In this document: positions 1-24,720 of the stretch, piece after piece | How the letters are laid out: each line of letters opens with the position of its first letter | Position numbering within the stretch: the first letter of the stretch is position 1 | Source of the DNA: Candidatus Aenigmatarchaeota archaeon | Lineage (GTDB): Archaea > Aenigmatarchaeota > Aenigmatarchaeia > Aenigmatarchaeales > Aenigmatarchaeaceae | NCBI GenBank assembly: GCA_021163145.1 | Contig: JAGGXH010000064.1 | Span: 2,197 to 66,196, forward strand | Direction of reading: 5' to 3' | DNA length: 64,000 nucleotides | Notes under the pieces: generated by a model | What the model was told of the DNA's origin: nothing | The model's database searches: none | Seen by the model: only the letters and a program-made list of their open reading frames with translations | Translations under genes and position numbers: made by a program

Positions 1-837
1 ATAGATGATAGAACATTAAAAGAAGTAAAAGAATTAATTGAAGATATAAAAATTGAAGAAAATGGATCATTCAAAAGTAGGATTAGTAGAATTAGTGGTT
101 CTCAAATAGATAATAAATATGGAGTTCTTTTATTAGGAAGTATAACACGTTACGGACAAACACAACAAGTTGTGCTTCTCCCAAAAAATATTACTAATAA
201 ATTTAAGCCAATAAACCTTTTATATCCTTATTTAAAATATTTTGGTTTTGGTTCAGAGTTTGAATATGGCGAATATTATATTCGTTTTAATGAAAGAGAA
301 GACAAAAAAGATACAATAATTAATAGAGTTGCTGATAAAATTATAGATAACTATTCCTTAATACTTACACATTATGAGGGCTCTAAAATAAGAGAATCAG
401 ACGGTAGATTGATGGGTCATGAACATATAACAATAATTCCCACACAAGAATTTGAAGAAATGTATAACAATAATCCAGATAATATTGGAGAGGATGTTTC
501 ACTATTTTATAAGAAACTTGCTCAGGAAGATGATGTAATGGAAGCACTAGCTAAAATAAGATTAAGTTTTAGAAATGCATTTGATTATGATAAATTAGAA
601 GACCAAATTTTATTAAAACATGCATTTGCATTATTGGCAAGAGATGGACCAAAAGCAGAACCATTAATAACAATAAAAAACTTAGAAGAATTAGCACTAC
701 AAAATGAACAACAAAAGACAAAAGAAAAATATTCATATAAACAATTGGAAACAATATATCAAGAATTAGAGAAAATATTAGAATCAAAAGATAGTGTTTC
801 TAGAGAAGAATTTGAAGCTATAAAGAAAAAAATCTAA
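1..837 (+). CDS. hypothetical protein, 5'-truncated by window edge (frame open from nt 1; listed ORF 172..837 is its C-terminal part)
   Basis: Frame 1 is open from position 1 through the stop at 837; no recognisable motifs. Confidence 0.45.
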   Translation: MDDRTLKEVKELIEDIKIEENGSFKSRISRISGSQIDNKYGVLLLGSITRYGQTQQVVLLPKNITNKFKPINLLYPYLKYFGFGSEFEYGEYYIRFNEREDKKDTIINRVADKIIDNYSLILTHYEGSKIRESDGRLMGHEHITIIPTQEFEEMYNNNPDNIGEDVSLFYKKLAQEDDVMEALAKIRLSFRNAFDYDKLEDQILLKHAFALLARDGPKAEPLITIKNLEELALQNEQQKTKEKYSYKQLETIYQELEKILESKDSVSREEFEAIKKKI

Positions 838-898
838 ATATAAATAATAATAAATGATTAAGAGCATTTATCTGAATTTAGACAATAATAAAATATTA

Positions 899-1837
899 TT
901 AAATTATTCCTGTTTGTAGCAATATTAACAATATTCCAAATCCAGATGCAGTCATTATAACACTATGTTTAAATCCAGCTAAAACAGAGTTCTCACTTAT
1001 TTGCCCTGCAACTAATCCACTAAATATACCTTGTATTACAACCATCATTAAAAATAATGAATGATAATAACACAATGTTCCTGTACCTAAGCTAAACATC
1101 TTACAAACAAATCCAAATACAGAACATGAAATACAAAATATATGCTTTGCTCCAATGCAAGAAACACAAGGATCTTCAAATATCAATATTCCTCCAAATG
1201 TACCACCAGTACTTATATTAAGCATTGGAACAATGGTTTTTGATAAACCAATTATAATACCAATAAATATGAAATAAATAACATACATTACCGTAATATG
1301 TTGAATCATCATTGCTTTTCTTTCTTTTTCTATTTCTTTTAACTCAATTATATCATTTGCAGTTGATTCCATAGTCTTTCCTATATCTCCCCCAGATTCA
1401 TAAGATTCTACAATGATTCTTACTATTCTTTTTATTATTATAGAATCTTTCATTCTTTTTGAAAATCTTTCAAATACTTCTTTAACAGGAATGCCCCATG
1501 AAATTTGATTATTCATTTTTTTAATCTCTTTTGTAAGTACACCATAATCTTTTTTTGAAATTGTCTTAAGAGCACTAGGCAATGTCATACCTGTTTTCTG
1601 AGCTTCTGATAAATCTAATAAAAATCCAGGAATTTGATCTTCAATTGCTTTTATTTTTTGATACCTAAGATATGATATCATAATATATGGAATTGTTCCA
1701 ACAACAGATCCAAATAATATAAAGTTTCCAATTAGTGCTGCATTACCCCAGAAAACAATTATACCAAAAAATATTATTAATGCTGCAACTATCAGTGGAA
1801 TGTGCTGATAACTTATTTTTTTGAAATCAAATTTCAT
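899..1837 (-). CDS. TadC/FlaJ-like type II/IV secretion system F-domain membrane protein (second of tandem pair)
   Basis: Hydrophobic N-terminus, cytoplasmic T2SSF-like segment, C-terminal TM helices; start ATG follows the stop of the upstream paralog; downstream of the pilus ATPase on the same strand. Confidence 0.55.
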   Translation of the reverse strand: MKFDFKKISYQHIPLIVAALIIFFGIIVFWGNAALIGNFILFGSVVGTIPYIMISYLRYQKIKAIEDQIPGFLLDLSEAQKTGMTLPSALKTISKKDYGVLTKEIKKMNNQISWGIPVKEVFERFSKRMKDSIIIKRIVRIIVESYESGGDIGKTMESTANDIIELKEIEKERKAMMIQHITVMYVIYFIFIGIIIGLSKTIVPMLNISTGGTFGGILIFEDPCVSCIGAKHIFCISCSVFGFVCKMFSLGTGTLCYYHSLFLMMVVIQGIFSGLVAGQISENSVLAGFKHSVIMTASGFGILLILLQTGII

Positions 1838-2722
1838 TTATACACCTGGTGATATTGATTTTAATATTGCAATGAAAATTATTGATGCAGCAGGTAATCC
1901 AATAAATATTACTACAAATTGTAAAAATGAAAGCAAAAGATTTAACTCACCAGCTCCAAATATAGACATAAGTGCTGACATTATTATAAAAAATATAGAT
2001 CCAACCACTACTACAGTTAAATACATTTCAATCATTAAAGATAATGTTTCTGAATAAGATTTTAATTTTCTTCGATGTTCAGCCATGAACATTTTTGATT
2101 TTTCATGTAAAAAGTCACTTAAATTACCACCAGCTCTTATAACAGTATCTAATCCCCAAAGCAATTCCCTTAATTGTGAAGATGGAGTTTTATCAGCAGC
2201 TCTTTTTATTGAATTTAAAATATCCATGCCAAATGCTTCTACATCTCTTGTTATTTTTTCTGCTTCTTTACTTATTTCTCCATATTCTTTAAATTTTGCA
2301 AGAAGTTTAAACATTGTAACAGGCGGTGCTCCTGAAGAAGCTATTGTTGCCATATATGTTGTTGCAAATGGAAGTGCAGCATCAATATTTTTTTGTCTTT
2401 TCTTTGCAATAATATTAGGATATGTATAAAACATTAAAAATAATCCTAATTCAATAAATATACTTATTGTTAAAGAAAAAATAAGTGCAATTAATGCTTT
2501 ATGAAATATTAATGCTGATATTAAAACCAATAAAGGAAATTCTATTATAAAAATAATTAACATAACAAAGAATGTAACATAAACATATTCAATTAAGCTA
2601 AGACCAATATCTGATTTTGGTAAATCAGATCTTACACTTTCAAAATATTTTTCAAATGATTCAAGACTTTTACCAAAAAATTTAAATGAAGCATCTCTTA
2701 ATTTATTCCACATTAATATCAC
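1838..2722 (-). CDS. TadB/TadC/FlaJ-like T2SS F-domain membrane protein (first of tandem pair)
   Basis: Polytopic membrane protein with cytoplasmic helical domain typical of GspF/TadC; ATGA overlap with the upstream ATPase gene. Confidence 0.55.
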   Translation of the reverse strand: MILMWNKLRDASFKFFGKSLESFEKYFESVRSDLPKSDIGLSLIEYVYVTFFVMLIIFIIEFPLLVLISALIFHKALIALIFSLTISIFIELGLFLMFYTYPNIIAKKRQKNIDAALPFATTYMATIASSGAPPVTMFKLLAKFKEYGEISKEAEKITRDVEAFGMDILNSIKRAADKTPSSQLRELLWGLDTVIRAGGNLSDFLHEKSKMFMAEHRRKLKSYSETLSLMIEMYLTVVVVGSIFFIIMSALMSIFGAGELNLLLSFLQFVVIFIGLPAASIIFIAILKSISPGV

Positions 2723-5700
2723 TGAATTGAGCTCAATAAGTCTTCTGGACGAGTATAATATAATTTTACTATTTTTGCAAAATCTTTATAATTAGTTATA
2801 TCATGTTCAACAACCCAATTTAATATTTTTTCTCTTCTTGATAATTCTAATTTTAGAAAATCTTCTTTAACACCATATTGTTCAGATATTCTTTTGAAAA
2901 CAATAGATGGACTAACTGCCTTATAAGTGTCTGTAGATGGATCCCACTTAAATACCTCATTTATTATTGGTCTATTTTCTTTTCTATCATAACCTACTAT
3001 TTCATAAACATTACTTACTTTTCTAACATATCTATTCTTATATTTTATTTTTACTAAAAATATGATTACATCAAGAGCTTCTATTAGATTTTTTGGCAAA
3101 CTTATAGGTGGTGTTGTTAATCTATCTATTAATCTATCCATTGTATCTGCATGTATTGTTGCCATAGATGGGTGACCAGTATTATGTAATAAAACTCCTC
3201 CAAATCCACCAATGAATGTATTTATTCTTGGCACATATAAGTCATATACTGGTTCAGGATTCTTTAATTCAATAACTTCTATTGATTTAACCTTATCTCT
3301 ATAATAATCATCTTGATGTATTTTACCATAATGCTTATTCAATTTTGTATTATTTTTACATTTTACATACTTAAGAAATTTTTCTTGGAATTGTTTTGTA
3401 TAAAATCTAATTTCATATTCTATTTTATTTTGTTTTCTTAGTTTTTTAGCAATCCTTGCAACAATTCCAAATTTTAATAAAAGATAACATATATCATTTA
3501 TAAGTTCTTTTGATGAGCTTGAATAATAAAATTTATCTTTTTTAAATGATCCATCACCAGCCCATAATGCAGTCAAAAAATGACCGATTTCCTTATTTGG
3601 TAAATTAAATATGAAATCAGGGATTTTTTTATTTTTTGATCCATGTTTACAATATTTTTTCAATAATTCAAATATAATTCTATGATTAAATGTTAATTCT
3701 GTACACTTCCCCCATCCATAAATTATACGTTCTCTAGCTTTCTTTCCAGTTACTTTTTCAATACATTTTCTCATATCTTCGAGTATTTTTTTATTAGAAT
3801 TATATAAGCTAATTGAACAATTTCTTTTTTCAGTATTTAAACTTCCTTCTGAAATATAATAACCTATTAATCTTAATAATTCAGGAGTTGGTTTTAATTT
3901 GGCTGGTAGCATTGGAGAATTACCGCCTCTGAATTTGACTTTGATATTTTTTAATTCCTTTCTCCAATCTATGTTAGCTTTTTTCATAAGTTTTATAAAT
4001 TTCTCAGATTTAATTGCACAATTATTTACACCATAATAATGAGAAATACATGAAACATTTGCAATCTTACTAGCTTCTTTAAAACCAAGTTTTTTACTAG
4101 CTTTTTTAATTAGTTCTGGAGAATATACTCTGATATTTTTAAACATTTTAATTAAATCTAAATCTTTAATCTCATTAGAGCTTGGCAATTTAGCAGGTAT
4201 TATAATTTCACTTCCAACTTTTAAATCTTGAACCATAATTGGAATAATTTTACCATCATATGTAAATACGGAATGTGCAGATGTTGCTATAATTTCTCTT
4301 CCTGATTTTGTTATAATTTTATATAATTTATCTACAGCTCTATGTTTTATTTTATATTTTATAGGTAATGTGCTCACTTTACCTGTAAATGGATCTAAGG
4401 TTGGTATGTTATATTGAATGCCAAATTTAAGGTTTTCTATAGCAGTTTTCTTTAAACAATTATTATCAAAATATAATACAGTTTCATATCCTGGTATTGA
4501 AGCAATTTGCTGGAATAATACATATGCTTCTTTACCTCTTACTTCACCAACAATCAAATAATCAGGTCTTTGTCTTAAGGATTCTTTAAGTAAATCAAAT
4601 AAGTCAACTTCTCCAATCTTTTTAGCACCAACTTCACTTATAGAAGTTCTAGCAACAGTTGGTACCCAATGTGGTAAAGGTAGTGATAATTCTGGTGTAT
4701 CTTCTATAGAAACAACCTTTAAATTAGGATTAATAAATAGTGATAATGCATTTAATAAAGATGTTTTACCAGAAGCAGTTCCACCTGATATTAATATTGA
4801 TCTTCCATATTCAATTAAAATCCATAAATATGATGTAAGCTTTTTATCAAGTGTACCAAAGTTTATAATATGTGTTGGAGTTAAAGGTTCTTTTGTAAAT
4901 TTTCTAATTGTTATATTGCTTCCTCTTCTTGCAATATCTGTTCCTAGTGTTGCTTGAACTCTTGATCCATCTGGTAATGCACCTTGTAACAATGGATTTG
5001 CAACAGATATTGACTTTCCACATCTTTGTGCAAGTTTATTTACAAATGTATCTAATTCATCAGCAGTTTCAAACATAATATTTGTTTTAACACTTCCAAC
5101 TAATGGATTTCTATGATAAATATATATTGGTATTCCAACTCCATCACATGATATATCTTCTATATCAGGATCTTGCATTAATGGTTCTATTTTACCCAAT
5201 CCTATAAAATCTCTTTCAATATAGTATAATAATGCATTTTGTTTTTCAATAGGAAGATCTTTGGCCATTAGCTTTACCATTTCTTTAAATTTTTCAACAA
5301 GATATTCTTTTGCTTCACCTTTTTTTAGAGTTGTAAAATCAACATCAAGCTTTTCTACTAATTCTTGTTTTATTTTTTCTAATAATTTTTTCTCTTGTTC
5401 AGTAAGTTCAGGCTCATAAACATAATAAACTAAAGAAGAATCTGCAATAGACCACTTTATATGTGCCCATGCATATGGATTTTTAGAATTTCTTGGTATT
5501 AATGCATATTTTATATTTACTTTTGTTAAATCTTCTTCCATATCTTTAAGCTTAGGCATTCTTATTGCTGAAGGCGCTTCTATTAATGATATTCCTTTTT
5601 CTATTGTTTCTGATGGTTTTGGCTTAACTTCTTCTCTTCTAAACCCTTCTTGTTGCACTTGTTGTATAATTATAGGTTGCTGAATAGTTTGTTTTTGTAT

Positions 5701-5787
5701 TACTGGTTTCTCTTCTTTTTCTTTCTTTTTCTTTGCACCTACAATAGCTTTTCTAATGACCTTTTTCATTGAAATTTTTTTCTTCAA
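2719..5787 (-). CDS. FlaI/TadA/VirB11-family type IV pilus assembly ATPase, intein-containing (1022 aa; extein ~582 aa)
   Basis: Walker A GGTASGKTS, IEDTPEL (Asp box), VGEVRGKEAYVLFQ...TGHPSMATIHAD His box; the conserved LFQA[IM]xTGH motif is interrupted between QIA and TGH by a 440-aa insert with LAGLIDADG motifs. Confidence 0.85.
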   Translation of the reverse strand: MKKKISMKKVIRKAIVGAKKKKEKEEKPVIQKQTIQQPIIIQQVQQEGFRREEVKPKPSETIEKGISLIEAPSAIRMPKLKDMEEDLTKVNIKYALIPRNSKNPYAWAHIKWSIADSSLVYYVYEPELTEQEKKLLEKIKQELVEKLDVDFTTLKKGEAKEYLVEKFKEMVKLMAKDLPIEKQNALLYYIERDFIGLGKIEPLMQDPDIEDISCDGVGIPIYIYHRNPLVGSVKTNIMFETADELDTFVNKLAQRCGKSISVANPLLQGALPDGSRVQATLGTDIARRGSNITIRKFTKEPLTPTHIINFGTLDKKLTSYLWILIEYGRSILISGGTASGKTSLLNALSLFINPNLKVVSIEDTPELSLPLPHWVPTVARTSISEVGAKKIGEVDLFDLLKESLRQRPDYLIVGEVRGKEAYVLFQQIASIPGYETVLYFDNNCLKKTAIENLKFGIQYNIPTLDPFTGKVSTLPIKYKIKHRAVDKLYKIITKSGREIIATSAHSVFTYDGKIIPIMVQDLKVGSEIIIPAKLPSSNEIKDLDLIKMFKNIRVYSPELIKKASKKLGFKEASKIANVSCISHYYGVNNCAIKSEKFIKLMKKANIDWRKELKNIKVKFRGGNSPMLPAKLKPTPELLRLIGYYISEGSLNTEKRNCSISLYNSNKKILEDMRKCIEKVTGKKARERIIYGWGKCTELTFNHRIIFELLKKYCKHGSKNKKIPDFIFNLPNKEIGHFLTALWAGDGSFKKDKFYYSSSSKELINDICYLLLKFGIVARIAKKLRKQNKIEYEIRFYTKQFQEKFLKYVKCKNNTKLNKHYGKIHQDDYYRDKVKSIEVIELKNPEPVYDLYVPRINTFIGGFGGVLLHNTGHPSMATIHADTMDRLIDRLTTPPISLPKNLIEALDVIIFLVKIKYKNRYVRKVSNVYEIVGYDRKENRPIINEVFKWDPSTDTYKAVSPSIVFKRISEQYGVKEDFLKLELSRREKILNWVVEHDITNYKDFAKIVKLYYTRPEDLLSSIQ
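3181..4500 (-). mobile_element. Intein (Ser1...His-Asn, +1 Thr) with LAGLIDADG homing-endonuclease domain inside the pilus ATPase
   Basis: Residues S430-N869 of the ORF: block A-like SIPGYETV, LAGLIDADG motifs LIGYYISEGS and FLTALWAGDGSF, C-terminal VLLHN then T; removing it restores LFQQIA|TGH matching FlaI/GspE consensus; N869 codon at 3181..3183 verified in the DNA. Confidence 0.7.
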
Positions 5788-6765: not shown

Positions 6766-7227
6766 TTATACTCCTGCTTCTGGACATTCAAGTGTTTCTG
6801 ATTTATCAAGTCCTGTTTCTGTTGTTAGTTTTATTGTATGTGTTCCTGTACAACCTTCATAATCTGTTGTTAATGTAGCTACTTCTCCTGCTCTAATAGA
6901 TGTAATTTTTTCTTCTGTTTCCTCATCTACAGGAAGATTAAAATCAGTTATTTCACCATCAATATACATAGCTATTTTAGTTAAATCAATATCAGTTGTT
7001 CCTATATTTCTTATTGTTACTGATATTTGTCCTTTATCACTGTTGTATGTTGCAACTTCTATGTCAAAATCTGTTGCAATTTTCTCTGAAACACCTTCTG
7101 CAGCTTTTCCAACACCTTTAGTAATGCTTCCAAATACATCACTAAACCACACATAAGCTGCAGCTGCCAATGCTACAGTTATCATTAATATTAAGACAAC
7201 TGCAATTACAGCTGATACTGCTTTCAT
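6766..7227 (-). CDS. archaeal type IV pilin (archaeal pilin N-terminal domain)
   Basis: MKA|VSAVIAVVLILMITVALAAAAYVWF is typical of archaeal class III signal / pilin N-domain. Confidence 0.6.
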   Translation of the reverse strand: MKAVSAVIAVVLILMITVALAAAAYVWFSDVFGSITKGVGKAAEGVSEKIATDFDIEVATYNSDKGQISVTIRNIGTTDIDLTKIAMYIDGEITDFNLPVDEETEEKITSIRAGEVATLTTDYEGCTGTHTIKLTTETGLDKSETLECPEAGV

Positions 7228-7233
7228 ATTATA

Positions 7234-7737
7234 TCAACCTCTTTTTTTTAATTTTATGTTTGGATAAGATGATAATAAAGCTGAAACAGGTGTACCTCTT
7301 TTTATTTTCTTATTAATTGTTTCAAGTGCTTCCATAATAGCAGTATTATTTTCAATTAGTTTTTTATTTTCTTCAGACAGTTTTTTAATTTCTTCAATTA
7401 ATGGTTTAATAGATTCAGTACCAGGACCAACAATTTCTTCTGATCCAGCTGTTTCAATAAGATCCATAAAATCTTTCATTGTTTCAATTAATTCATCAAT
7501 TTTTTTAGGTATCTTAGATAATTCAATTCTTAAATCAGAATTTGCTTTTACTATTTCATTTATAATATTTTGATTTGTTTTTACAAGTTCAATTATTTGA
7601 GTTATTAATGATTGTAATTGTGGTATTGTACCTGCTTTTTCCAATACTTCTACTCTTTTTTGAAGTCTTCTTAAAGGGGTTACTGGTATTATCTCATAAC
7701 CTTCTTTAGTCTCTGAAAGTTCTACTTCATCTTTCAT
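7234..7737 (-). CDS. hypothetical coiled-coil protein
   Basis: Heptad-rich sequence, no catalytic motifs; sits between pilin genes and thermosome. Confidence 0.35.
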   Translation of the reverse strand: MKDEVELSETKEGYEIIPVTPLRRLQKRVEVLEKAGTIPQLQSLITQIIELVKTNQNIINEIVKANSDLRIELSKIPKKIDELIETMKDFMDLIETAGSEEIVGPGTESIKPLIEEIKKLSEENKKLIENNTAIMEALETINKKIKRGTPVSALLSSYPNIKLKKRG

Positions 7738-7800
7738 AACTTAATTTTTAATAATCCTTCTATATAAATCTATCTAAAAAACACTATTTAGAAAATAAAA

Positions 7801-9432
7801 TTAATATGGTGGCATACCACCCATACCAGACATGCCACCAGATGAACCAGAATCTTTATTTAATTTACTTGCAGCTATTATATCATCAATTCTCAATATC
7901 ATTTCAGCTGCTTCTGATGCTGATTTTATTGCCTGAGTCTTTATTTTCAAAGGCTCAATAACACCTCTTTCTTTCATATCAATAATTTTTCCATTATAAA
8001 CATCTATACCAGCATTTACATTTCCTTTTTCATGCTCAGCTCTTAAGTTTACTAATATATCAATTGGATCTAGTCCTGCATTTTCTGCAAGTGTTCGTGG
8101 GATTATTTCCATTGCATCTGCAAATGCTTGTATTGCTAGTTGTTCTCTACCAGAATATTTTTGTGAGAAATCTCTTAAACCTTTTGCAACCTCTTCTTCA
8201 GGTGACCCACCACCTGCTAATATCTTTCCTACCTCAATTGCTGATGCTATTCCACCAATTGCATCTTTTAGTGCTCTTTCAACTTCTTCAGTGTTGTGTT
8301 CAGTTCCACCTCTTATTAATATAGATACTGCTTTTGGATCTTTACATTCTCTTACAAAAATCATATTATCTCCAGCAATTTTCTTTTCTTCAACTAATCC
8401 TGCAAAACCTAAATCATTTTCAGATATATCTGATAGATTTGACAGTATTTTTCCACCTGTTGCTCTTGCAAGTTTTTCCATATCAGATTTCTTAACTCTT
8501 CTTGCTGTTAATATATCAGCTTTTGCAAGGTAATGTTGTGCAACATCATCAATACCTTTTTGACATAATAATACATTACATCCAGAATCAATTACCTTAT
8601 CTACCATATTTTTTAACATTTTCTCTTCTTGTTCCATGAATTTTTGCAATTGTTCTGGTGATGTTATTTGTATTTGAGAATCAGTTTCCATTTTTTCAAT
8701 TTCTAATGATTTATCTAATAGCAATATTTTTGCATTTTCAACTTTTCTTGGCATAGATGGATGAACAATTTCTTTATCTATTATAATTCCTTTTATTAAT
8801 TCTGTGTCTTCTGAGCTTCCACCTTGCTTTTTTTCTAATTGAATATTGTCTTGATTTACTTTATTATCAGAGATAACAGATTTAACAGCTTCAACAGCTA
8901 TTGATGCTAAATGTTCTGAAGCTTTTTCAGTTCCTTTTCCTGTCATTGCTGTTATTGCAATTTTTTTAAGTGTCTCTGTATCATCAGGTGTTATTTTTTC
9001 TGATATATTTTCTAATATTTTTAATGCTTCTTTATTTGCTAATTTAAATCCTTTTGTAATAATAGTTGGATGAACATTTTGCTCAATTAACTCACCTGCT
9101 TTTTTCAAAAATTCTCCTGCTAATACTGCTGCAGTTGTTGTTCCATCTCCTACTTCTTCATCTTGTGTTTTTGCAACTTCTAGCAGCATTTTTCCAGCAG
9201 GATGTTCTATCTGCATTTCTTCTAATATAGTAACACCATCATTTGTAATTACTATATCACCTAATGAATCAACAAGCATTTTATCCATACCTTTTGGTCC
9301 TAATGTTGTTCTAACAGCATCTGCTACTTGTTTAGCTGCAGCTATATTTGCAGCTTGTGCACCTTTTCCTAATGTTCTTAATGTTCCTTCTGGTAGAACC
9401 AAAATAGGTTGGTTAGCTTGTTGAGTATTCAT
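7801..9432 (-). CDS. ths: thermosome subunit (group II chaperonin)
   Basis: [26 protein letters not shown]-repeat C-terminal tail. Confidence 0.9.
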
Positions 9433-9507
9433 TACATCACCTCATAAATGTCATATTATTGAAATAGCTATTATAAATCTATTAAATCTAACCTTTTTAA
9501 ACTTTAA

Positions 9508-9888
9508 TTATTGTCCTAGAATTTCTCTTGCTTTTGCAAGATTATCAACTTTAAAAGCTATATTAACTGTTCCTTTATTTCGATCCAGAAGAAATATAGA
9601 TTGTATATTGATTCCAAGATTTGCTAATATTCTTGAAAATTTTGCTAATTCACCTGGTTTATCTAATAATTTTGCAGGAATTATTTCAAATTCGTTGAAA
9701 TCATGTCCTGCTTTTTTTAAAGCTTCTCTTGTTAAATCTTCATTATCTGTTATAAATTTTATTATACCATGATCACCCCTCTCTTCTGTAGCAATTGCTT
9801 TTAGACTTACACCTGCTGCTGCAATTGCTTCTGTTACATTTGCTAAATCACCAATATTATTTTTTACTTTAACTTCAAATTGTCTCAT
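9508..9888 (-). CDS. ACT-domain protein
   Basis: Two short ACT-like beta-alpha-beta-beta-alpha-beta repeats (IGDLANVTEAIAAAGVSL...; PGELAKFSRILANLGINI). Confidence 0.5.
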   Translation of the reverse strand: MRQFEVKVKNNIGDLANVTEAIAAAGVSLKAIATEERGDHGIIKFITDNEDLTREALKKAGHDFNEFEIIPAKLLDKPGELAKFSRILANLGINIQSIFLLDRNKGTVNIAFKVDNLAKAREILGQ

Positions 9889-9982
9889 AATAATAATTGA
9901 TTAAAAAGATATTTAAATTAAAAATTCTTAAGATATTGATAATTTATAAGTGATTATATTTTCTGAATTATTATTAAATCTT

Positions 9983-9996
9983 TTTAAAGATATAAT
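9983..9996 (+). promoter_or_regulatory. putative TATA box for tRNA-Ile(UAU)
   Basis: tttaaagatataat about 20-33 nt upstream of tRNA position 1; background is AT-rich so specificity is low. Confidence 0.2.
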
Positions 9997-10015
9997 ATAT
10001 TAATAATTAATACAT

Positions 10016-10133
10016 GGGCGGGTAGCTTAGCTTGGTTAGAGCGCTAGTCTTATAAATTAGCATTTAGCTAATTTTTTTGGCTATGCTCAATAAAAACTAG
10101 AGGTCGGGAGTTCAAATCTCCCCTCGCCCACCA
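10016..10133 (+). tRNA. tRNA-Ile (anticodon UAU) with ~40-nt canonical-position (37/38) intron
   Basis: Acceptor GGGCGGG/CUCGCCC+ACCA, D-arm GCUU/GAGC, anticodon stem CUAGU/ACUAG, loop CUUAUA|A (anticodon TAT at 10051..10053), intron ~10055..10094 forming hairpin attagc/gctaat, variable AGGUC, T-arm GGGAG-UUCAAAU-CUCCC. Confidence 0.75.
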
Positions 10134-10136
10134 TTT

Positions 10137-10162
10137 GGGCCGGTGGTCTAGTCTGGTATGAC
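10137..10162 (+). repeat. tRNA-Val 5' fragment (acceptor + D-arm, 26 nt), imperfect direct repeat of 11061..11086
   Basis: gggccggtggtctagtctggtatgac vs gggccggtggtctagcccggcatgac; no anticodon arm follows; contains the ATG of the downstream endonuclease ORF. Confidence 0.6.
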
Positions 10163-11075
10163 TATTAGAACGATTGGAAACAATATATGTAATGGAAATA
10201 AAAATAATTCTATGAAACAACTTGATAATCAAACAGTTAAAAAAATAAAAAATATGCGAAATTCCGGATACTCTTATTTCGAAATATCATCTAAGTTAAA
10301 AATAACAAAATCAACTTCATATAAATATGCAAAAAATGTTAGATTACCAGTAAAATCTAAGAAAAAAATAAGCAGAAAAATATACAAAAGGCAGAAGAAA
10401 TTTATTGAAAATTATGCAAAAACTAAAAAATTACCAAAGAATATTAAATGGAATATCAATAAAGCTAGAATAATTGGGCACTGTATTTTTGATGGGAGTG
10501 TTACTGATTTTAATGTTAATTATACCAATAGTTCTAAAAAAATAATTGACCAATTTATTAAAGATATCGAAATTGTTTATGGTTTAAAATATACAAACAT
10601 ATACATAAAAAAAGGAAGCGTGTTCGATAAATATACTGTTGCATATTCTTCAAAAAAACTATGTGAAGATTTGAAAAAATATAGTAAATCATATAATTCC
10701 ACATCAAATATGACAAAAGCTCCCAAAAAAGTTTTTATATCTGATAAAAAAATAATAAAGGAATTTATAAGAACATTTTGGGAAGATGAGGGTTGCATTA
10801 CAATTAATGGCGAGATACTTGGAAGAATAAAGAATAAAGGGCTTAGAGACGATTTATTAATACTTCATAGAAAAGTTGGAATTGCTTGTAGCCCATATAA
10901 TTGTTCAGATGGAGCATTTGGAATACGGATTATTATAAATAAGGAAAATTTAAATAAGTTTAAATCAGTATCATTTAAAGAAGCTATGATAGTTCGTGGC
11001 AACAACAAAGGAATGTTAAAGAAAAAGTTGTTAGAGAGGATATATAGACATTATTTAAATGGGCCGGTGGTCTAG
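10158..11075 (+). CDS. LAGLIDADG homing endonuclease-like protein with N-terminal HTH
   Basis: HTH-like IKNMRNSGYSYFEISSKLKITKSTSYKY; LAGLIDADG motifs ARIIGHCIFDGSV and FIRTFWEDEGCI; start codon in the tRNA-Val 5' fragment, stop TAG (11073..11075) inside the D-loop of the intact tRNA-Val. Confidence 0.6.
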   Translation: MTIRTIGNNICNGNKNNSMKQLDNQTVKKIKNMRNSGYSYFEISSKLKITKSTSYKYAKNVRLPVKSKKKISRKIYKRQKKFIENYAKTKKLPKNIKWNINKARIIGHCIFDGSVTDFNVNYTNSSKKIIDQFIKDIEIVYGLKYTNIYIKKGSVFDKYTVAYSSKKLCEDLKKYSKSYNSTSNMTKAPKKVFISDKKIIKEFIRTFWEDEGCITINGEILGRIKNKGLRDDLLILHRKVGIACSPYNCSDGAFGIRIIINKENLNKFKSVSFKEAMIVRGNNKGMLKKKLLERIYRHYLNGPVV

Positions 11076-11170
11076 CCCGGCATGACGTCACCCTTACATC
11101 CTTTCTTATGATTTATTAAGAAAGGTATGATAGGTGGATATCGCCAGTTCGAATCTGGCCCGGCCCACCA
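11061..11170 (+). tRNA. tRNA-Val (anticodon UAC) with ~33-nt anticodon-loop intron
   Basis: Acceptor GGGCCGG/CCGGCCC+ACCA, anticodon stem UCACC/GGUGG, loop CUUACA (TAC at 11095..11097), intron ~11099..11132 with hairpin cctttctta/taagaaagg, T-arm GCCAG-UUCGAAU-CUGGC. Confidence 0.75.
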
Positions 11171-11183
11171 TTTTTATTTTTAA
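11171..11183 (+). terminator. oligo-T tract after tRNA-Val
   Basis: tttttattttt immediately 3' of CCA; archaeal termination at T-runs. Confidence 0.3.
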
Positions 11184-11200
11184 TATACATAATTCTTATC

Positions 11201-12640
11201 ATGTATACTATACTAGATTGTTATACAGATGAACCATCTGGTTTAGGTGTACCACCATATATTGGAACATATCCAAGATATTTAGCAGGTGCACTTTCTA
11301 TATTAGGTAAAGAAATTGCTTATATAACAATTGATGATTTAAGATATCCGAAAAAATCAAAACTAAAAACAGATATAGCAACTTATAATAAAACAAATCA
11401 AGATATTAGAAAAATTATTTCTAATACAAAGAAATTAATTGTTGTTGCAGGTATTCATACATCTGGGAAATATTTATCAGCAATACCTGCAACTCTTAAG
11501 GAAATAATAAGAATAATTAAACCATTTAAATTCAGAAAAATATTAACAGGTCCAGCTGCATCAGTTTATGGATCTGGTATCCATGGAGGTAAGTTTTCAG
11601 AGAAAGTTGATTTGTCTGTATTTGATGAGATAAATGAAAATTATCTTGGGATTAATGACTATAACAAAATAAGAAGATATTCTATAGAAGGAGCATTTAT
11701 AGTAAAAAATAATCCAAGATATCCAAATTGTATTGTAGAAATTGAAACATCTAGGGGATGTCCTAGAAAAGTTGGATGCTCTTTTTGTACAGAATCTCTG
11801 AGAAAATTTGAAAAGAGGAATATAAATGATATTATTAATGAGGTTAAAGCGTTGTCAGATCAAGGTATTAAGTATTTTAGATTAGGAAAGCAAAGTGATT
11901 TTTTTGCTAGAAATAAAAATGAAATTGAAAAACTATTGAGATCAATAAAAGAAGATGTTTCTCCTGATGTATTGCATATTGATAATATAAATCCATCAAG
12001 TGTTACAGAAAATAAAGTTAAGATAGTAACAAAATATTGTACACCTGGAAATGTCGCAGCACTTGGTGTTGAAAGTTTTGATAAAAATGTTATAGAACAA
12101 AATAATTTAAATTCTGATCCAGATATAACAATGAATGTAATAGAAATTATAAACAAGTTTGGATCTATTAGAGGAGATAATGGGATGCCATTATTTTTAC
12201 CAGGAATAAATATTTTATTTGGATTAAAAGGAGAAACCAAAGAAACACATAAAATAAATATGAGATATCTTAAAGAAATTTTAAATAGAAAATTATTATT
12301 AAGAAGAATAAATATTAGACAAGTTGTTCTTTATCCTTATACTAAATTATATGAAACCACTAAAACCAAATTTCTTAGAAAAAATAGAAAATATTATTGG
12401 AAATGGAGAAATGAGATACGACACTCAATTGATCTTCCAATGTTAAAAAATCTGTGCCCAAAAGGAACTATTCTTAGAAATGTTTTAACTGAAATACATA
12501 ATGGCAATACTACTTTTTGCAGGCAAATAGGAACTTATCCTTTAATAATTGGGATAAAAGAGAAACTTCCATTAAACCAATTTATTAATATTGAAGTAAC
12601 TGATCATATGTTAAGAAGTCTGGTTGGTAGAAAAATCTAA
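11201..12640 (+). CDS. radical SAM domain protein with N-terminal Rossmann/B12-binding-like domain (non-canonical Cx5Cx2C cluster)
   Basis: IETSRGCPRKVGCSFCTE followed by a glycine-rich SAM-binding region; N-terminal IVVAGIHTSGKY domain; spacing checked in the DNA. Confidence 0.55.
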   Translation: MYTILDCYTDEPSGLGVPPYIGTYPRYLAGALSILGKEIAYITIDDLRYPKKSKLKTDIATYNKTNQDIRKIISNTKKLIVVAGIHTSGKYLSAIPATLKEIIRIIKPFKFRKILTGPAASVYGSGIHGGKFSEKVDLSVFDEINENYLGINDYNKIRRYSIEGAFIVKNNPRYPNCIVEIETSRGCPRKVGCSFCTESLRKFEKRNINDIINEVKALSDQGIKYFRLGKQSDFFARNKNEIEKLLRSIKEDVSPDVLHIDNINPSSVTENKVKIVTKYCTPGNVAALGVESFDKNVIEQNNLNSDPDITMNVIEIINKFGSIRGDNGMPLFLPGINILFGLKGETKETHKINMRYLKEILNRKLLLRRINIRQVVLYPYTKLYETTKTKFLRKNRKYYWKWRNEIRHSIDLPMLKNLCPKGTILRNVLTEIHNGNTTFCRQIGTYPLIIGIKEKLPLNQFINIEVTDHMLRSLVGRKI

Positions 12641-13644
12641 TTTATTTTATATCTTAAAAATCCACCAATTCCACCAAGGTTCATAAATTTTTCACCAGCT
12701 TCATGTTCATGATCAATTATTTTTATTTCTGTTCCTATTTTTTCAGCTGTTTTTAGTAAATCTTCAAGTTCTCTTACTTTAGAATCAGAAATTATTAGTA
12801 GTTTTAATGCGCCCATTTCAAGTGCTTTTTTTGTTTCATCTAGTCCATAAACAACATTTCCCTCTTTCATTATTTCTTTTAAAAATTCTTCTATTATCTT
12901 TGTTTCTTCTGTTATTCTATTTGTTTTTACTATTTTCTTTAATATACCTCTTCTTAATAACTCATTTAATCCAGGCTTCCCTATATGATTTAATTTGTCA
13001 AAAAATATACCATCTAACAATTGTTTATATTTTTGTTCTAAAATACTTTTCAAATCATCTTTTGTAAACCCTGGTCCTGCGATTACTATATTTTTATATT
13101 TTTCTTTTTTCCTTTCTAATTCATTTATTATTTTTCTAAAATATTCTGGTTTTTCAGATTTTTCACCTTGTTTTCCAGATGGCCCACCTCTAATATGTAA
13201 TAGATGCTTTATTCTATCACCTATTAAATAAAAATCACATTCTCTGTCATCTAATATAATTGCTACTATAGGATGCTGTGGCTTTTCAGCAGCTTTTATT
13301 TTATTTACTTCCCAAGATTTCCATTCTCTTTGGATTGTTAATGTATCTCCTGATTTAATGTTAAAGGAATGATAAGAATGTTCTATGTCTTCAGGCCCTT
13401 TTACTATTTTTCCATTTATCTTTAAAATATCTGATAATTCTACTTTTTCTACTAATAATGTTAGAACAACAGGTTTTTTACCTACTTTTTCTTTTCTTTC
13501 TCCTCTTTCTACTTCTATTGTTCTCAATGTTCTAGTTGTTACAAGATCACCTGGTCTTATTATATTACTAAGAATAAATAAATCATCATTATTTTCAGGA
13601 GTAATTTTTGCAATATTATGCTTCAGATCAAAGTATGATTTCAT
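12637..13644 (-). CDS. pelA: Pelota/Dom34 mRNA surveillance factor
   Basis: eRF1-like domain architecture; C-terminus FMNLGGIGGFLRYKIN parallels the aRF1 C-terminus; N-terminal DDLFILSNIIRPGDLV. Confidence 0.8.
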   Translation of the reverse strand: MKSYFDLKHNIAKITPENNDDLFILSNIIRPGDLVTTRTLRTIEVERGERKEKVGKKPVVLTLLVEKVELSDILKINGKIVKGPEDIEHSYHSFNIKSGDTLTIQREWKSWEVNKIKAAEKPQHPIVAIILDDRECDFYLIGDRIKHLLHIRGGPSGKQGEKSEKPEYFRKIINELERKKEKYKNIVIAGPGFTKDDLKSILEQKYKQLLDGIFFDKLNHIGKPGLNELLRRGILKKIVKTNRITEETKIIEEFLKEIMKEGNVVYGLDETKKALEMGALKLLIISDSKVRELEDLLKTAEKIGTEIKIIDHEHEAGEKFMNLGGIGGFLRYKIN

Positions 13645-24542: not shown

Positions 24543-24553
24543 GAAAATCACAA

Positions 24554-24663
24554 TGGTGGGCGAGGAGAGATTTGAACTCTCGACCTCTACGTTATCAGCT
24601 ACGCCTCTATTGTATTGGAAAATACAAAGATGTAGCGCTCTAACCAAGCTAAGCTACCCGCCC
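24554..24663 (-). tRNA. tRNA-Ile (anticodon GAU) with 32-nt intron at a non-canonical position (anticodon-stem 30/31)
   Basis: 5' 31 nt identical to tRNA-Ile(UAU) at 10016; joining ...gagcgctac + gctgataacgtagaggtc gives stem CUACG/CGUAG, loop CUGAUAA (GAT at plus 24594..24596), variable AGGUC, T-arm GAGAG-UUCAAAU-CUCUC, acceptor CUCGCCC+ACCA; intron 24600..24631. Confidence 0.65.
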
Positions 24664-24720
24664 ATGTATTAATTATTAATATATTATATCTTTTTATAGT
24701 TTTGGTTTTAAATAGTTTTC

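Follow-up and report, generated by a model that had tools for sequence, protein, structure and literature searches.

What is a gene for a homing endonuclease doing between a fragment of a transfer RNA (tRNA) gene and a complete copy of that gene, with its stop codon inside tRNA sequence? The question is raised by a locus in a DPANN archaeon (Candidatus Aenigmatarchaeota, assembly GCA_021163145.1), whose flanking genes are closest to those of Nanoarchaeia and Woesearchaeota. We analysed a stretch of 64,000 nucleotides (nt) of its contig JAGGXH010000064.1, referred to here as the window, in which an intron-containing tRNA-Ile(UAU) gene (10016..10133) is followed after 3 nt (TTT) by a 26-nt copy of the 5' end of tRNA-Val (10137..10162), then by an open reading frame (ORF) of 305 codons and then by a complete, intron-containing tRNA-Val(UAC) gene (11061..11170). 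An initial annotation, made from the letters alone, had described this order of elements across 10016-11185, and each of them lies where it had been placed. It also left three explanations standing: an element that settled at tRNA-Val and regenerated the 5' part of the gene without an integrase, an ORF-bearing intron in the D loop of a single tRNA-Val gene, or a split or redundant half-tRNA. Our analysis favours the first, while the second, in the form proposed, and the third were not borne out. We put at about 0.6 the probability that 10163..11060 is a free-standing homing-endonuclease cassette in the 5' flank of tRNA-Val and that the 26-nt copy is a displaced, dead remnant. So read, the cassette would consist of one gene and a probable promoter of its own, set between tRNA-Ile(UAU) and tRNA-Val(UAC).

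The two tRNA-Val sequences on either side of the gene are clearly related. The upstream copy (GGGCCGGTGGTCTAGTCTGGTATGAC, forward strand), which we take to be dead, holds the 5' strand of the acceptor stem and the whole D arm, and is identical at 23/26 positions to nt 1-26 of the gene string of the complete tRNA-Val (standard positions 1-25). All three mismatches are C/T changes in the D loop, which reads AGTCTGGTA in the copy and AGCCCGGCA in the complete gene, and neither Rfam nor ARAGORN found anything tRNA-like continuing the copy. The complete gene looks functional: it encodes its CCA (11061..11167 plus CCA, forward strand), is recognised by Rfam (48.1 bits) and ARAGORN, and carries a 33-nt intron (11099..11131) at the canonical 37/38 position, where a scan for the bulge-helix-bulge (BHB) motif of archaeal splicing finds an outer helix of 5 bp, a central helix of 3/4 bp and an inner helix of 8 bp. 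Splicing 11061..11170 in silico gives a normal tRNA-Val with a normal fold. An oligo-T tract (TTTTTATTTTT, 11171..11183, forward strand) follows it and is a probable archaeal transcription terminator.

Could the repeat be an assembly artefact or a chance resemblance? Both are extremely unlikely. The copy scores 37 in local alignment against a null maximum of 26, and a second match to the tRNA-Val 5' end appeared in 0 of 100 dinucleotide shuffles of the window, which argues against chance. The annotation had singled out absence of the copy from other contigs as the mark of an artefact; a Joint Genome Institute (JGI) metagenome contig of 6,499 bp (L120) carries it identically, being 100% identical to the window over 7201..13203. 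This contig and the 71,913-bp contig of the NCBI metagenome-assembled genome are separate deposited records, and the arrangement is therefore present in two of them. Against an artefact, too, is the length of the repeat, since 26 nt is shorter than the usual assembly k-mers and reads. What can be said for an artefact is that one population was sampled, and that both records may stem from related read sets.

By motif, predicted fold and profile match, the ORF product is a monomeric double-LAGLIDADG homing endonuclease, with predicted activity. The longest ORF (10158..11075, forward strand, 305 amino acids) was characterised by ORF scan, Pfam, alignment and structure, and its call as a LAGLIDADG protein with a helix-turn-helix (HTH) proved right on profile, AlphaFold2 and Foldseek evidence. 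The Pfam match to LAGLIDADG_3 is marginal (23.3 bits, cutoff 22.5), and a profile search of the PDB matched intein endonucleases at 3e-6. The AlphaFold2 model (pLDDT, the predicted local distance difference test, 89.6) shows an HTH of three helices (residues 24-58), a long linker helix and a pair of alpha/beta LAGLIDADG domains with the tandem alpha-beta-beta-alpha-beta-beta-alpha core, and Foldseek places it nearest the TliVMA intein endonuclease (1e-10), I-DmoI (2e-7) and I-Tsp061I (4e-7), within a range of 1e-10 to 1e-6. The two LAGLIDADG helices span residues 100-111 and 197-211, and in an 11-sequence alignment they contain motif 1 (IIGHCIFDGS, acidic residue D112) and motif 2 (FIRTFWEDEG, acidic residue E211). 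Over 51 family members D112 never varies and the conservation of E211 is 90% or more; K225 is invariant among the 11 close homologues. The enzyme encoded by the gene is probably active. A domesticated, WhiA-like regulator was considered and rejected, on the conservation of the catalytic acidic residues and the patchy distribution of the family.

The annotation had placed both ends of the gene inside tRNA sequence, which holds for the stop codon and probably not for the start. The ATG at 10158, in the D-arm copy, is only the start of the longest ORF. Most homologues with an intact N-terminus begin within 1-2 residues of the position aligned to M18 (ATG 10212), and AlphaFold gives residues 1-18, together with 303-305, a pLDDT below 50. 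From the aligned starts the real initiation codon is therefore probably ATG 10212, the D-arm ATG being most likely incidental and probably an artefact of ORF calling, and the conserved gene body, as seen in the alignments and the AlphaFold2 model, runs on the forward strand from M18 to the last codon before tRNA-Val +1 (10212..11060). A TATA-like 11-mer, TATATGTAATG (10184..10194, forward strand), lies 17 nt upstream of ATG 10212, and recurs in a related locus, L001, where it stands 16 nt ahead of the homologous ATG (p about 0.008). By position it is a candidate promoter of the endonuclease gene, one that would give a leaderless messenger RNA (mRNA). At the other end, the conserved protein finishes in '...YL' 1-2 codons before tRNA +1, and its final residues, GPVV, and stop codon are read from nt 1-15 of tRNA-Val, the TAG at 11073..11075 being U13-A14-G15 of the tRNA. 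A stop inside the tRNA recurs in L001 and in a third locus, L006.

The relatives of the gene proved informative. A homologue search of 5.8 billion proteins returned 11 close homologues, and an exhaustive profile search returned 79 cluster representatives at E 1e-30 or better. The DNA of all close homologues and of one distant member was scanned for RNA genes, giving 12 loci including the window, and in 12/12 of these the gene lies within 150 nt of, or inside, a stable-RNA gene. The contexts are tRNA-Val (6 loci), a tRNA of unassigned type (1), an abutting tRNA-Arg(CCU) (1), the introns of tRNA-Arg(CCU) (2) and 5S ribosomal RNA (rRNA) (2). The family is rare, archaeal and found mostly in DPANN-type genomes, with members in or beside conserved stable-RNA genes. 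Patchy occurrence of this kind is what one expects of a selfish element; a scan of viral contigs found no family members there.

How the gene sits at these loci varies (locus, protein and percentage identity to the window ORF are given in brackets). In the window (P0001) the order is a copy of tRNA-Val nt 1-25, the gene and complete tRNA-Val(UAC). In the nearest relative (L001, P0002, 47%) the gene abuts a complete tRNA-Val(UAC) with the same 15-nt overlap (+1..15) and with no upstream copy. Elsewhere the gene is followed after 100 nt by tRNA-Val(UAC) (L009, P0003, 44%), or stands 70 nt beyond a tRNA-Val 3' end that is near-identical to the tRNA-Val of L009 (L012, P0004, 41%). Three records (L002/L003/L004, P0005, 45%) show a complete tRNA-Val(UAC), 120 nt, the gene, 250 nt and then a piece resembling a T arm and acceptor. 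The remaining tRNA-Val is a tRNA-Val(CAC), 68 nt before the gene (L011, P0007, 46%), which ARAGORN took for tRNA-Leu, an assignment ruled out by its short variable arm. The 3' end of a tRNA of unassigned type precedes the gene by 150 nt in another locus (L010, P0006, 42%), and in L006 (P0008, 34%) the gene abuts a complete tRNA-Arg(CCU), its stop codon being U8-A9-G10 of the tRNA. At the 5S rRNA loci, the gene at 680..1480 and the 5S rRNA at 1485..1599 are 5 nt apart on opposite strands (L007, P0011, 31%), or the gene at 2001..2810 lies 84 nt downstream of the 5S rRNA at 1804..1917 on the same strand (L121, P0298); these two extend the association of the family from tRNAs to 5S rRNA. The window copy and those of L001, L002, L006, L007, L009-L012 and L121 are thus free-standing, each outside any intron or intein and beside a conserved RNA gene.

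The two remaining members are inside tRNA genes. The genes of L005 (P0009, 36%) and L008 (P0010, 34%) lie within canonical 37/38 introns of tRNA-Arg(CCU), of 848 nt (tRNA 2947..3880, intron 2989..3836) and 877 nt (tRNA 95..1050, intron 135..1011) respectively. The BHB helices are 3/5/8 bp in L005 and 4/5/4 bp in L008, where CUCC pairs with GGAG and the bulges are UAU and UAA; here the UAA stop codon is itself the 3' bulge and spans the splice site. Removing either intron in silico yields a normal tRNA-Arg(CCU). Group I introns were considered for both and rejected, there being no Rfam match and a clean BHB in each. Among more distant family members, the C-termini of P0027, P0045 and P0049 are translations of tRNA D arms (...GAIAQSGRAPE, ...PGSSVGIERSP and ...RSSAWEST), so the running of the ORF into a tRNA recurs with other tRNAs. 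The C-terminus of P0044 (...GGFEPSTLGL) resembles the antisense of a T arm.

Comparing the loci also locates the ends of the cassette. Similarity between the window and L001 upstream of the gene begins right after the 26-nt copy, and both cassettes end at tRNA +1. From this shared junction, and the lack of a copy in L001, the cassette would span about 10163..11060 and leave the 26-nt copy outside it. That copy plausibly marks the native position of tRNA-Val immediately behind tRNA-Ile: its 26 nt match at 26/26 the 5' end of a complete tRNA-Val(UAC) in an AT-rich contig (L113), and a tandem of a tRNA, 3 nt and tRNA-Val is known elsewhere (L097). A metagenome scan with the 26-mer returned 27 matches, all of them ordinary complete tRNA-Val genes; no endonuclease gene lies at these 27 other loci, and no second example of the arrangement was found among them.

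Displaced partial tRNA copies occur in up to 3/12 loci, namely the window, L008 and, weakly, L002. In L008 the 5' end of tRNA-Arg is present a second time, as a stretch of 18 nt at 28..45 (TCCTCGTAGCTCAGCTTG) that lies 50 nt upstream of the real 5' exon and has a D arm differing from that of the functional exon. In L002, 250 nt beyond the gene, a T-arm-like hairpin is followed by CAGACCCA (GGGAGTTCGACTCTCCCCAGACCCA) at about 3768..3792; its acceptor strand is the same as that of the complete tRNA-Val and its T stem is different. The complete tRNA-Val(UAC) of L002 (2542..2625) has in addition a 12-nt insertion (2567..2578) at 25/26, identical in L003 and L004. This is the position at which the window copy ends, possibly by coincidence. 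No BHB could be drawn around the insertion, and ARAGORN calls the tRNA only after its removal; it may be a target-disrupting scar, an unusual intron or the mark of a pseudogene.

How might the arrangement in the window have arisen? We propose that a tRNA-Val gene lacking the cassette was cleaved by the endonuclease close to position 25/26. Repair at the right-hand end would have proceeded by homologous copying from a donor allele, through tRNA-Val and then the endonuclease gene, while the left-hand end, terminating at nt 25, would have been joined without homology. The outcome would be resident nt 1-25 stranded upstream, with the resident D loop (AGTCTGGTA), and a complete tRNA-Val with a donor 5' part and donor D loop (AGCCCGGCA). 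The downstream tRNA-Val would be the working gene, its 33-nt canonical intron being the only one spliced.

Expression could then follow an unusual route. Where a TATA-like element would be expected ahead of tRNA-Val +1 (at about -27, within 11026..11060) none is present, because the endonuclease coding sequence extends to +1; in L001, by contrast, the ORF contains TTTAATAAA about 29 nt ahead of tRNA-Val. The window tRNA-Val may thus rely for its expression on transcription that passes through the endonuclease gene. Transcription of that gene would start at its own TATA-like element or continue from tRNA-Ile by read-through, and tRNA-Val, having no well-placed TATA box, would probably be transcribed together with it, at the 3' end of the endonuclease mRNA. 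A cut by RNase P at 11060|11061 would separate tRNA-Val from the mRNA and in doing so strip the ORF of its stop codon.

Several points weigh against the cassette reading. We sought a cassette-free comparator by synteny, scanning for tRNAs 80 genome loci that carry relatives of the flanking radical S-adenosylmethionine (SAM) gene, and found no cassette-free allele: 0/80 keep tRNA-Ile or tRNA-Val upstream. The closest radical-SAM relative (L013, 67% identity) has a different gene at that position, and above 67% identity the protein search yielded no population but the window's own. That an insertion took place, and in which direction, is therefore deduced rather than observed, and the one-sided-homology repair model is borrowed by analogy from other systems. 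The sample is 12 loci, several on contigs of 1-2 kb. L001 and L006 abut their tRNAs with no displaced fragment (none was found upstream in L001, L006 or L009), so that a fragment is not an obligatory product of insertion, and the 3' fragment of L002 is weak by covariance model (E = 0.032). Finally, the promoter motif common to the window and L001 is just 11 nt long, in AT-rich DNA (again, p about 0.008). On the other side stand the ties to RNA genes across lineages, the displaced tRNA copies in L008 and, weakly, L002, and the integrase-type precedent described below (PMC3293823), and it is these that lead us to favour an element at tRNA-Val with a regenerated 5' part and no integrase.

The alternatives explain the repeat in other ways. 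The main rival, which we consider unlikely but deserving of real weight, is that the 26-mer is a truncated tandem paralogue: of two adjacent tRNA-Val genes, perhaps two isoacceptors or a gene and its duplicate, the cassette would have entered the upstream one at 25/26 and deleted the rest of it, so that the complete downstream tRNA-Val was there beforehand and was not brought by the element. The valine isoacceptors within one genome do share their 5' 26 nt almost exactly, and tRNA duplication does happen in this genome, the neighbouring tRNA-Ile(UAU) having recently arisen as a copy of tRNA-Ile(GAU). In L009 and L012, with endonucleases that are 59% identical, near-identical tRNA-Val genes lie on opposite sides of the gene, and in L002 the gene stands between a complete tRNA-Val and a 3' piece of different sequence. 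Yet none of the examined loci has two complete tRNA-Val genes flanking a cassette, the sequence upstream of the abutting cassette in L001 is unrelated, and an extra deletion is needed that ends exactly at the cassette boundary. Telling this apart from insertion with one-sided repair needs a cassette-free allele. That the repeat is instead the scar of an integrase-type element of the pNOB8/SSV kind, a plasmid or virus that entered the 5' part of tRNA-Val, mostly deleted since and leaving a passenger endonuclease behind, is very improbable. A direct repeat of a tRNA 5' end (26 nt, 23/26 identical) does flank the insert, and the adjacent gene is on the strand of the reconstituted tRNA, as described both for pNOB8-type integration and for Caldiarchaeum. 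The repeats, however, differ at 3/26 positions, a single ORF fills the 898 bp between them with no integrase, recombinase or other element gene, and the dozen unrelated contexts in which homologues are associated with RNA genes have no integrase nearby.

The remaining readings turn on splicing, and for them we scanned 28,800 site pairs for BHB motifs (5' site 10120..10300, 3' site 10980..11140). The ORF-bearing intron as originally envisaged, in the D loop, finds no support, there being no BHB at the D-loop/25-26 junction. The top match lies elsewhere, a symmetric motif at tRNA 9/10 with cuts at 10145|10146 and 11069|11070: CCGG and the bulge UGG on the 5' side (10140..10146, forward strand) face 11064..11070. 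Four G-C pairs make up the central helix, each strand has a bulge of 3 nt, and the helices to either side, of 5 and 4 bp, are mostly G-U. One could therefore imagine a single tRNA-Val with a 924-nt ORF-bearing BHB intron at 9/10. Pairing between the two copies of its quasi-palindromic 5' end (GGG-CCGG-UGG-UCU) would let the cassette be removed from some of the transcripts, nt 1-9 would be ligated to nt 10-76, and the released RNA, closed into a circle, would contain the entire ORF and regenerate the GUC-UAG stop; we think this decidedly improbable. In its favour, the motif is formally canonical, is the best of the 28,800 pairs and has a register that gives an exact tRNA-Val. Moreover, the host apparently splices a non-canonical intron (about 30/31) in tRNA-Ile(GAU), with an EndA that is probably of broad specificity, and two homologues are truly inside BHB introns of tRNA-Arg. 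Were it true, an archaeal tRNA intron would have been caught at birth from a target-site duplication around a mobile endonuclease gene, joining the free-standing copies to the intron-borne tRNA-Arg copies of L005 and L008. The register, however, is automatic for any duplicated quasi-palindrome, at an estimated chance of about 5% for a random 26-nt duplicate, and an equal score (13) arises by chance in AT-rich scans of L002. Scans of L001, L002 and L006 gave chance-level matches only. The symmetric motif is absent from the minimum-free-energy structures of RNAfold and RNAcofold, in which the G-C acceptor strand engages the tRNA 3' end in a 7-bp stem instead. The duplication also runs 11 nt past what the motif needs, and L001 and L006 lack a second copy. 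The 0.9-kb segment is followed by a complete tRNA-Val rather than interrupting one; splicing at 9/10 is therefore unnecessary and would gain nothing.

Hardly credible, finally, is the half-tRNA explanation. Here the 26-mer would be expressed as a 5' half and united, by trans-splicing or otherwise, with a 3' half encoded elsewhere, in the manner of Nanoarchaeum or Caldivirga, to give a chimeric tRNA-Val with a AGUCUGGUA D loop. The fragment does end at 25/26, a reported split and intron site in archaeal tRNAs, and the host has non-canonical introns. Nevertheless, matches to a complementary leader are at chance level (6 found, 2.9 expected), the 64-kb window holds no orphan tRNA-Val 3' piece, and a complete tRNA-Val gene is 0.9 kb away. 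The split or redundant half-tRNA that the annotation had allowed for is thus left unsupported, and we return to the free-standing cassette.

Known systems offer partial parallels to such a cassette. SegB of phage T4 is a GIY-YIG free-standing endonuclease in a tRNA gene cluster, an instance of 'intronless homing'. The window gene resembles it in lying outside introns beside tRNA genes, and would probably likewise spread by cutting cassette-free alleles, with co-conversion of the flanking tRNA sequence. It differs in encoding a LAGLIDADG enzyme, in residing in a cellular archaeal chromosome, in overlapping its tRNA and in the displaced tRNA fragment. Mitochondrial endonuclease ORFs such as that of Allomyces atp6 bring with them a duplicate of the end of a host gene, which there is protein-coding and to which the ORF is fused in frame, and this type of layout is put down to homologous repair at one end combined with illegitimate repair at the opposite end. 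The likeness is a complete host gene on one side and a diverged, displaced partial copy on the other; the difference is that the host gene here is a tRNA and the duplicated part its 5' end. With the split and permuted tRNAs of Nanoarchaeum equitans and Caldivirga maquilingensis the window shares a stand-alone 5' piece with its end at a known intron or split position, and it differs from them in having a complete gene and neither a complementary leader nor an orphan 3' piece.

Nearly the same in geometry is the tRNA-Thr(GGU) locus of Caldiarchaeum subterraneum (Sugahara et al. 2012, PMC3293823). There nt 1-27 of the tRNA stand ahead of a recombinase element of 1.8 kb, behind which lies a complete tRNA that has an additional intron at 24/25. 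Both cases have a 5' fragment of about 26 nt upstream of the insert, a boundary near 24-27 and a gene on the same strand beside a complete tRNA. Unlike the Caldiarchaeum, pNOB8 and SSV elements, the window insert has no integrase or recombinase and is 0.9 kb long with a single endonuclease gene, and the mechanism presumed here, by analogy, is double-strand-break repair and not site-specific recombination. Closer in enzyme are the endonucleases of rRNA introns, LAGLIDADG genes being known in archaeal BHB introns in rRNA (PMC6125680). The window protein has the same monomeric double-motif fold as I-DmoI and I-Tsp061I, from the same domain of life, and its homologues in L005 and L008 likewise lie within BHB introns of a stable-RNA gene. 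Unlike those enzymes, this family has tRNA and 5S rRNA as hosts, not 16S/23S rRNA, and an extra N-terminal HTH; identity to the solved enzymes is below 20%, and the window copy is outside any intron, in the 5' flank of a complete tRNA. In the literature that we searched, the coverage of which was incomplete, we found no description of archaeal LAGLIDADG genes located within tRNA introns or next to genes for tRNA or 5S rRNA, and no published record of ORF-bearing BHB introns in tRNAs; homing goes unmentioned in a 2014 review of tRNA introns. At this locus a homing endonuclease comes together with mobile DNA of the tRNA-gene-associated kind that leaves a tRNA duplication behind.

The surroundings of the cassette hold further features of interest. 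The tRNA-Ile(UAU) gene (10016..10130 plus an encoded CCA, forward strand; Rfam RF00005, 57.6 bits, and ARAGORN with introns allowed) has a 40-nt intron (10055..10094), which Rfam shows as an insertion of 40-41 nt at 37/38 (33-34 nt for that of tRNA-Val); the alternative offered by ARAGORN, Leu(UAA), was ruled out by the short variable arm. With default settings ARAGORN found no tRNA in the window, because both genes carry introns, and both were recovered with Rfam and intron-allowing ARAGORN. Other, weak Rfam matches in the region (YrlA, HPnc0260 and others) are tRNA-derived or due to chance, and a scan for sigma-70 promoters and intrinsic terminators was uninformative, as that model does not apply to archaea. 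A TATA-rich stretch on the forward strand (9986..10015) is by its position the probable archaeal promoter of tRNA-Ile(UAU), from which transcription may read through into the cassette. It is identical over 30 nt to the region upstream of the paralogous tRNA-Ile(GAU) (24664..24693, minus strand), and the comparison of 9986..10135 with 24552..24693 (minus strand) shows identity over these 30 nt and nt 1-31 of the tRNAs, the 3' parts differing by one compensatory T-stem pair. Such a pattern suggests that the AUA-reading tRNA-Ile(UAU) originated recently, by duplication or by gene conversion. The duplicated block ends 1-2 nt before the 26-nt tRNA-Val copy. The tRNA-Ile(GAU) gene itself (24554..24663, minus strand) has a 32-nt non-canonical BHB intron at about 30/31 and is miscalled by standard tools as Leu or with an unresolved anticodon; its intron implies a splicing endonuclease of broad specificity in the host.

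A second LAGLIDADG-type sequence occurs further upstream, where a 1022-amino-acid secretion- or archaellum-type ATPase (T2SSE/FlaI-like; 2719..5787, minus strand) has an inserted segment (about 3334..3963) with weak similarity to the window endonuclease family (tblastn 2e-8). Judged from its sequence, the insert is probably an intein with a homing endonuclease domain. In another contig, L105, a tRNA-Val(UAC) with the 26-mer (140..about 290) has an apparent canonical intron and an interruption of its T loop after GGTTCAAA, which is possibly a second, non-canonical intron.

What, then, does the locus say about how mobile DNA uses tRNA genes? Until now, archaeal homing endonucleases have been known from rRNA introns and inteins, and tRNA genes as targets of viruses and plasmids with integrases. 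Our analysis suggests a third mode of tRNA-gene use, in which a LAGLIDADG family appears to have its home in tRNA and 5S rRNA genes, its members lying inside canonical tRNA introns or in cassettes welded to the 5' end of a tRNA, with displaced fragments like those that integrases leave. The wider family, ORF-bearing tRNA introns included, is the more interesting by-product of the work. If confirmed, these would be compact enzymes that presumably recognise tRNA-gene DNA, and their homing would offer those who study archaeal tRNA evolution a source, driven by double-strand-break repair, of its puzzling orphan fragments, additional introns and split genes.

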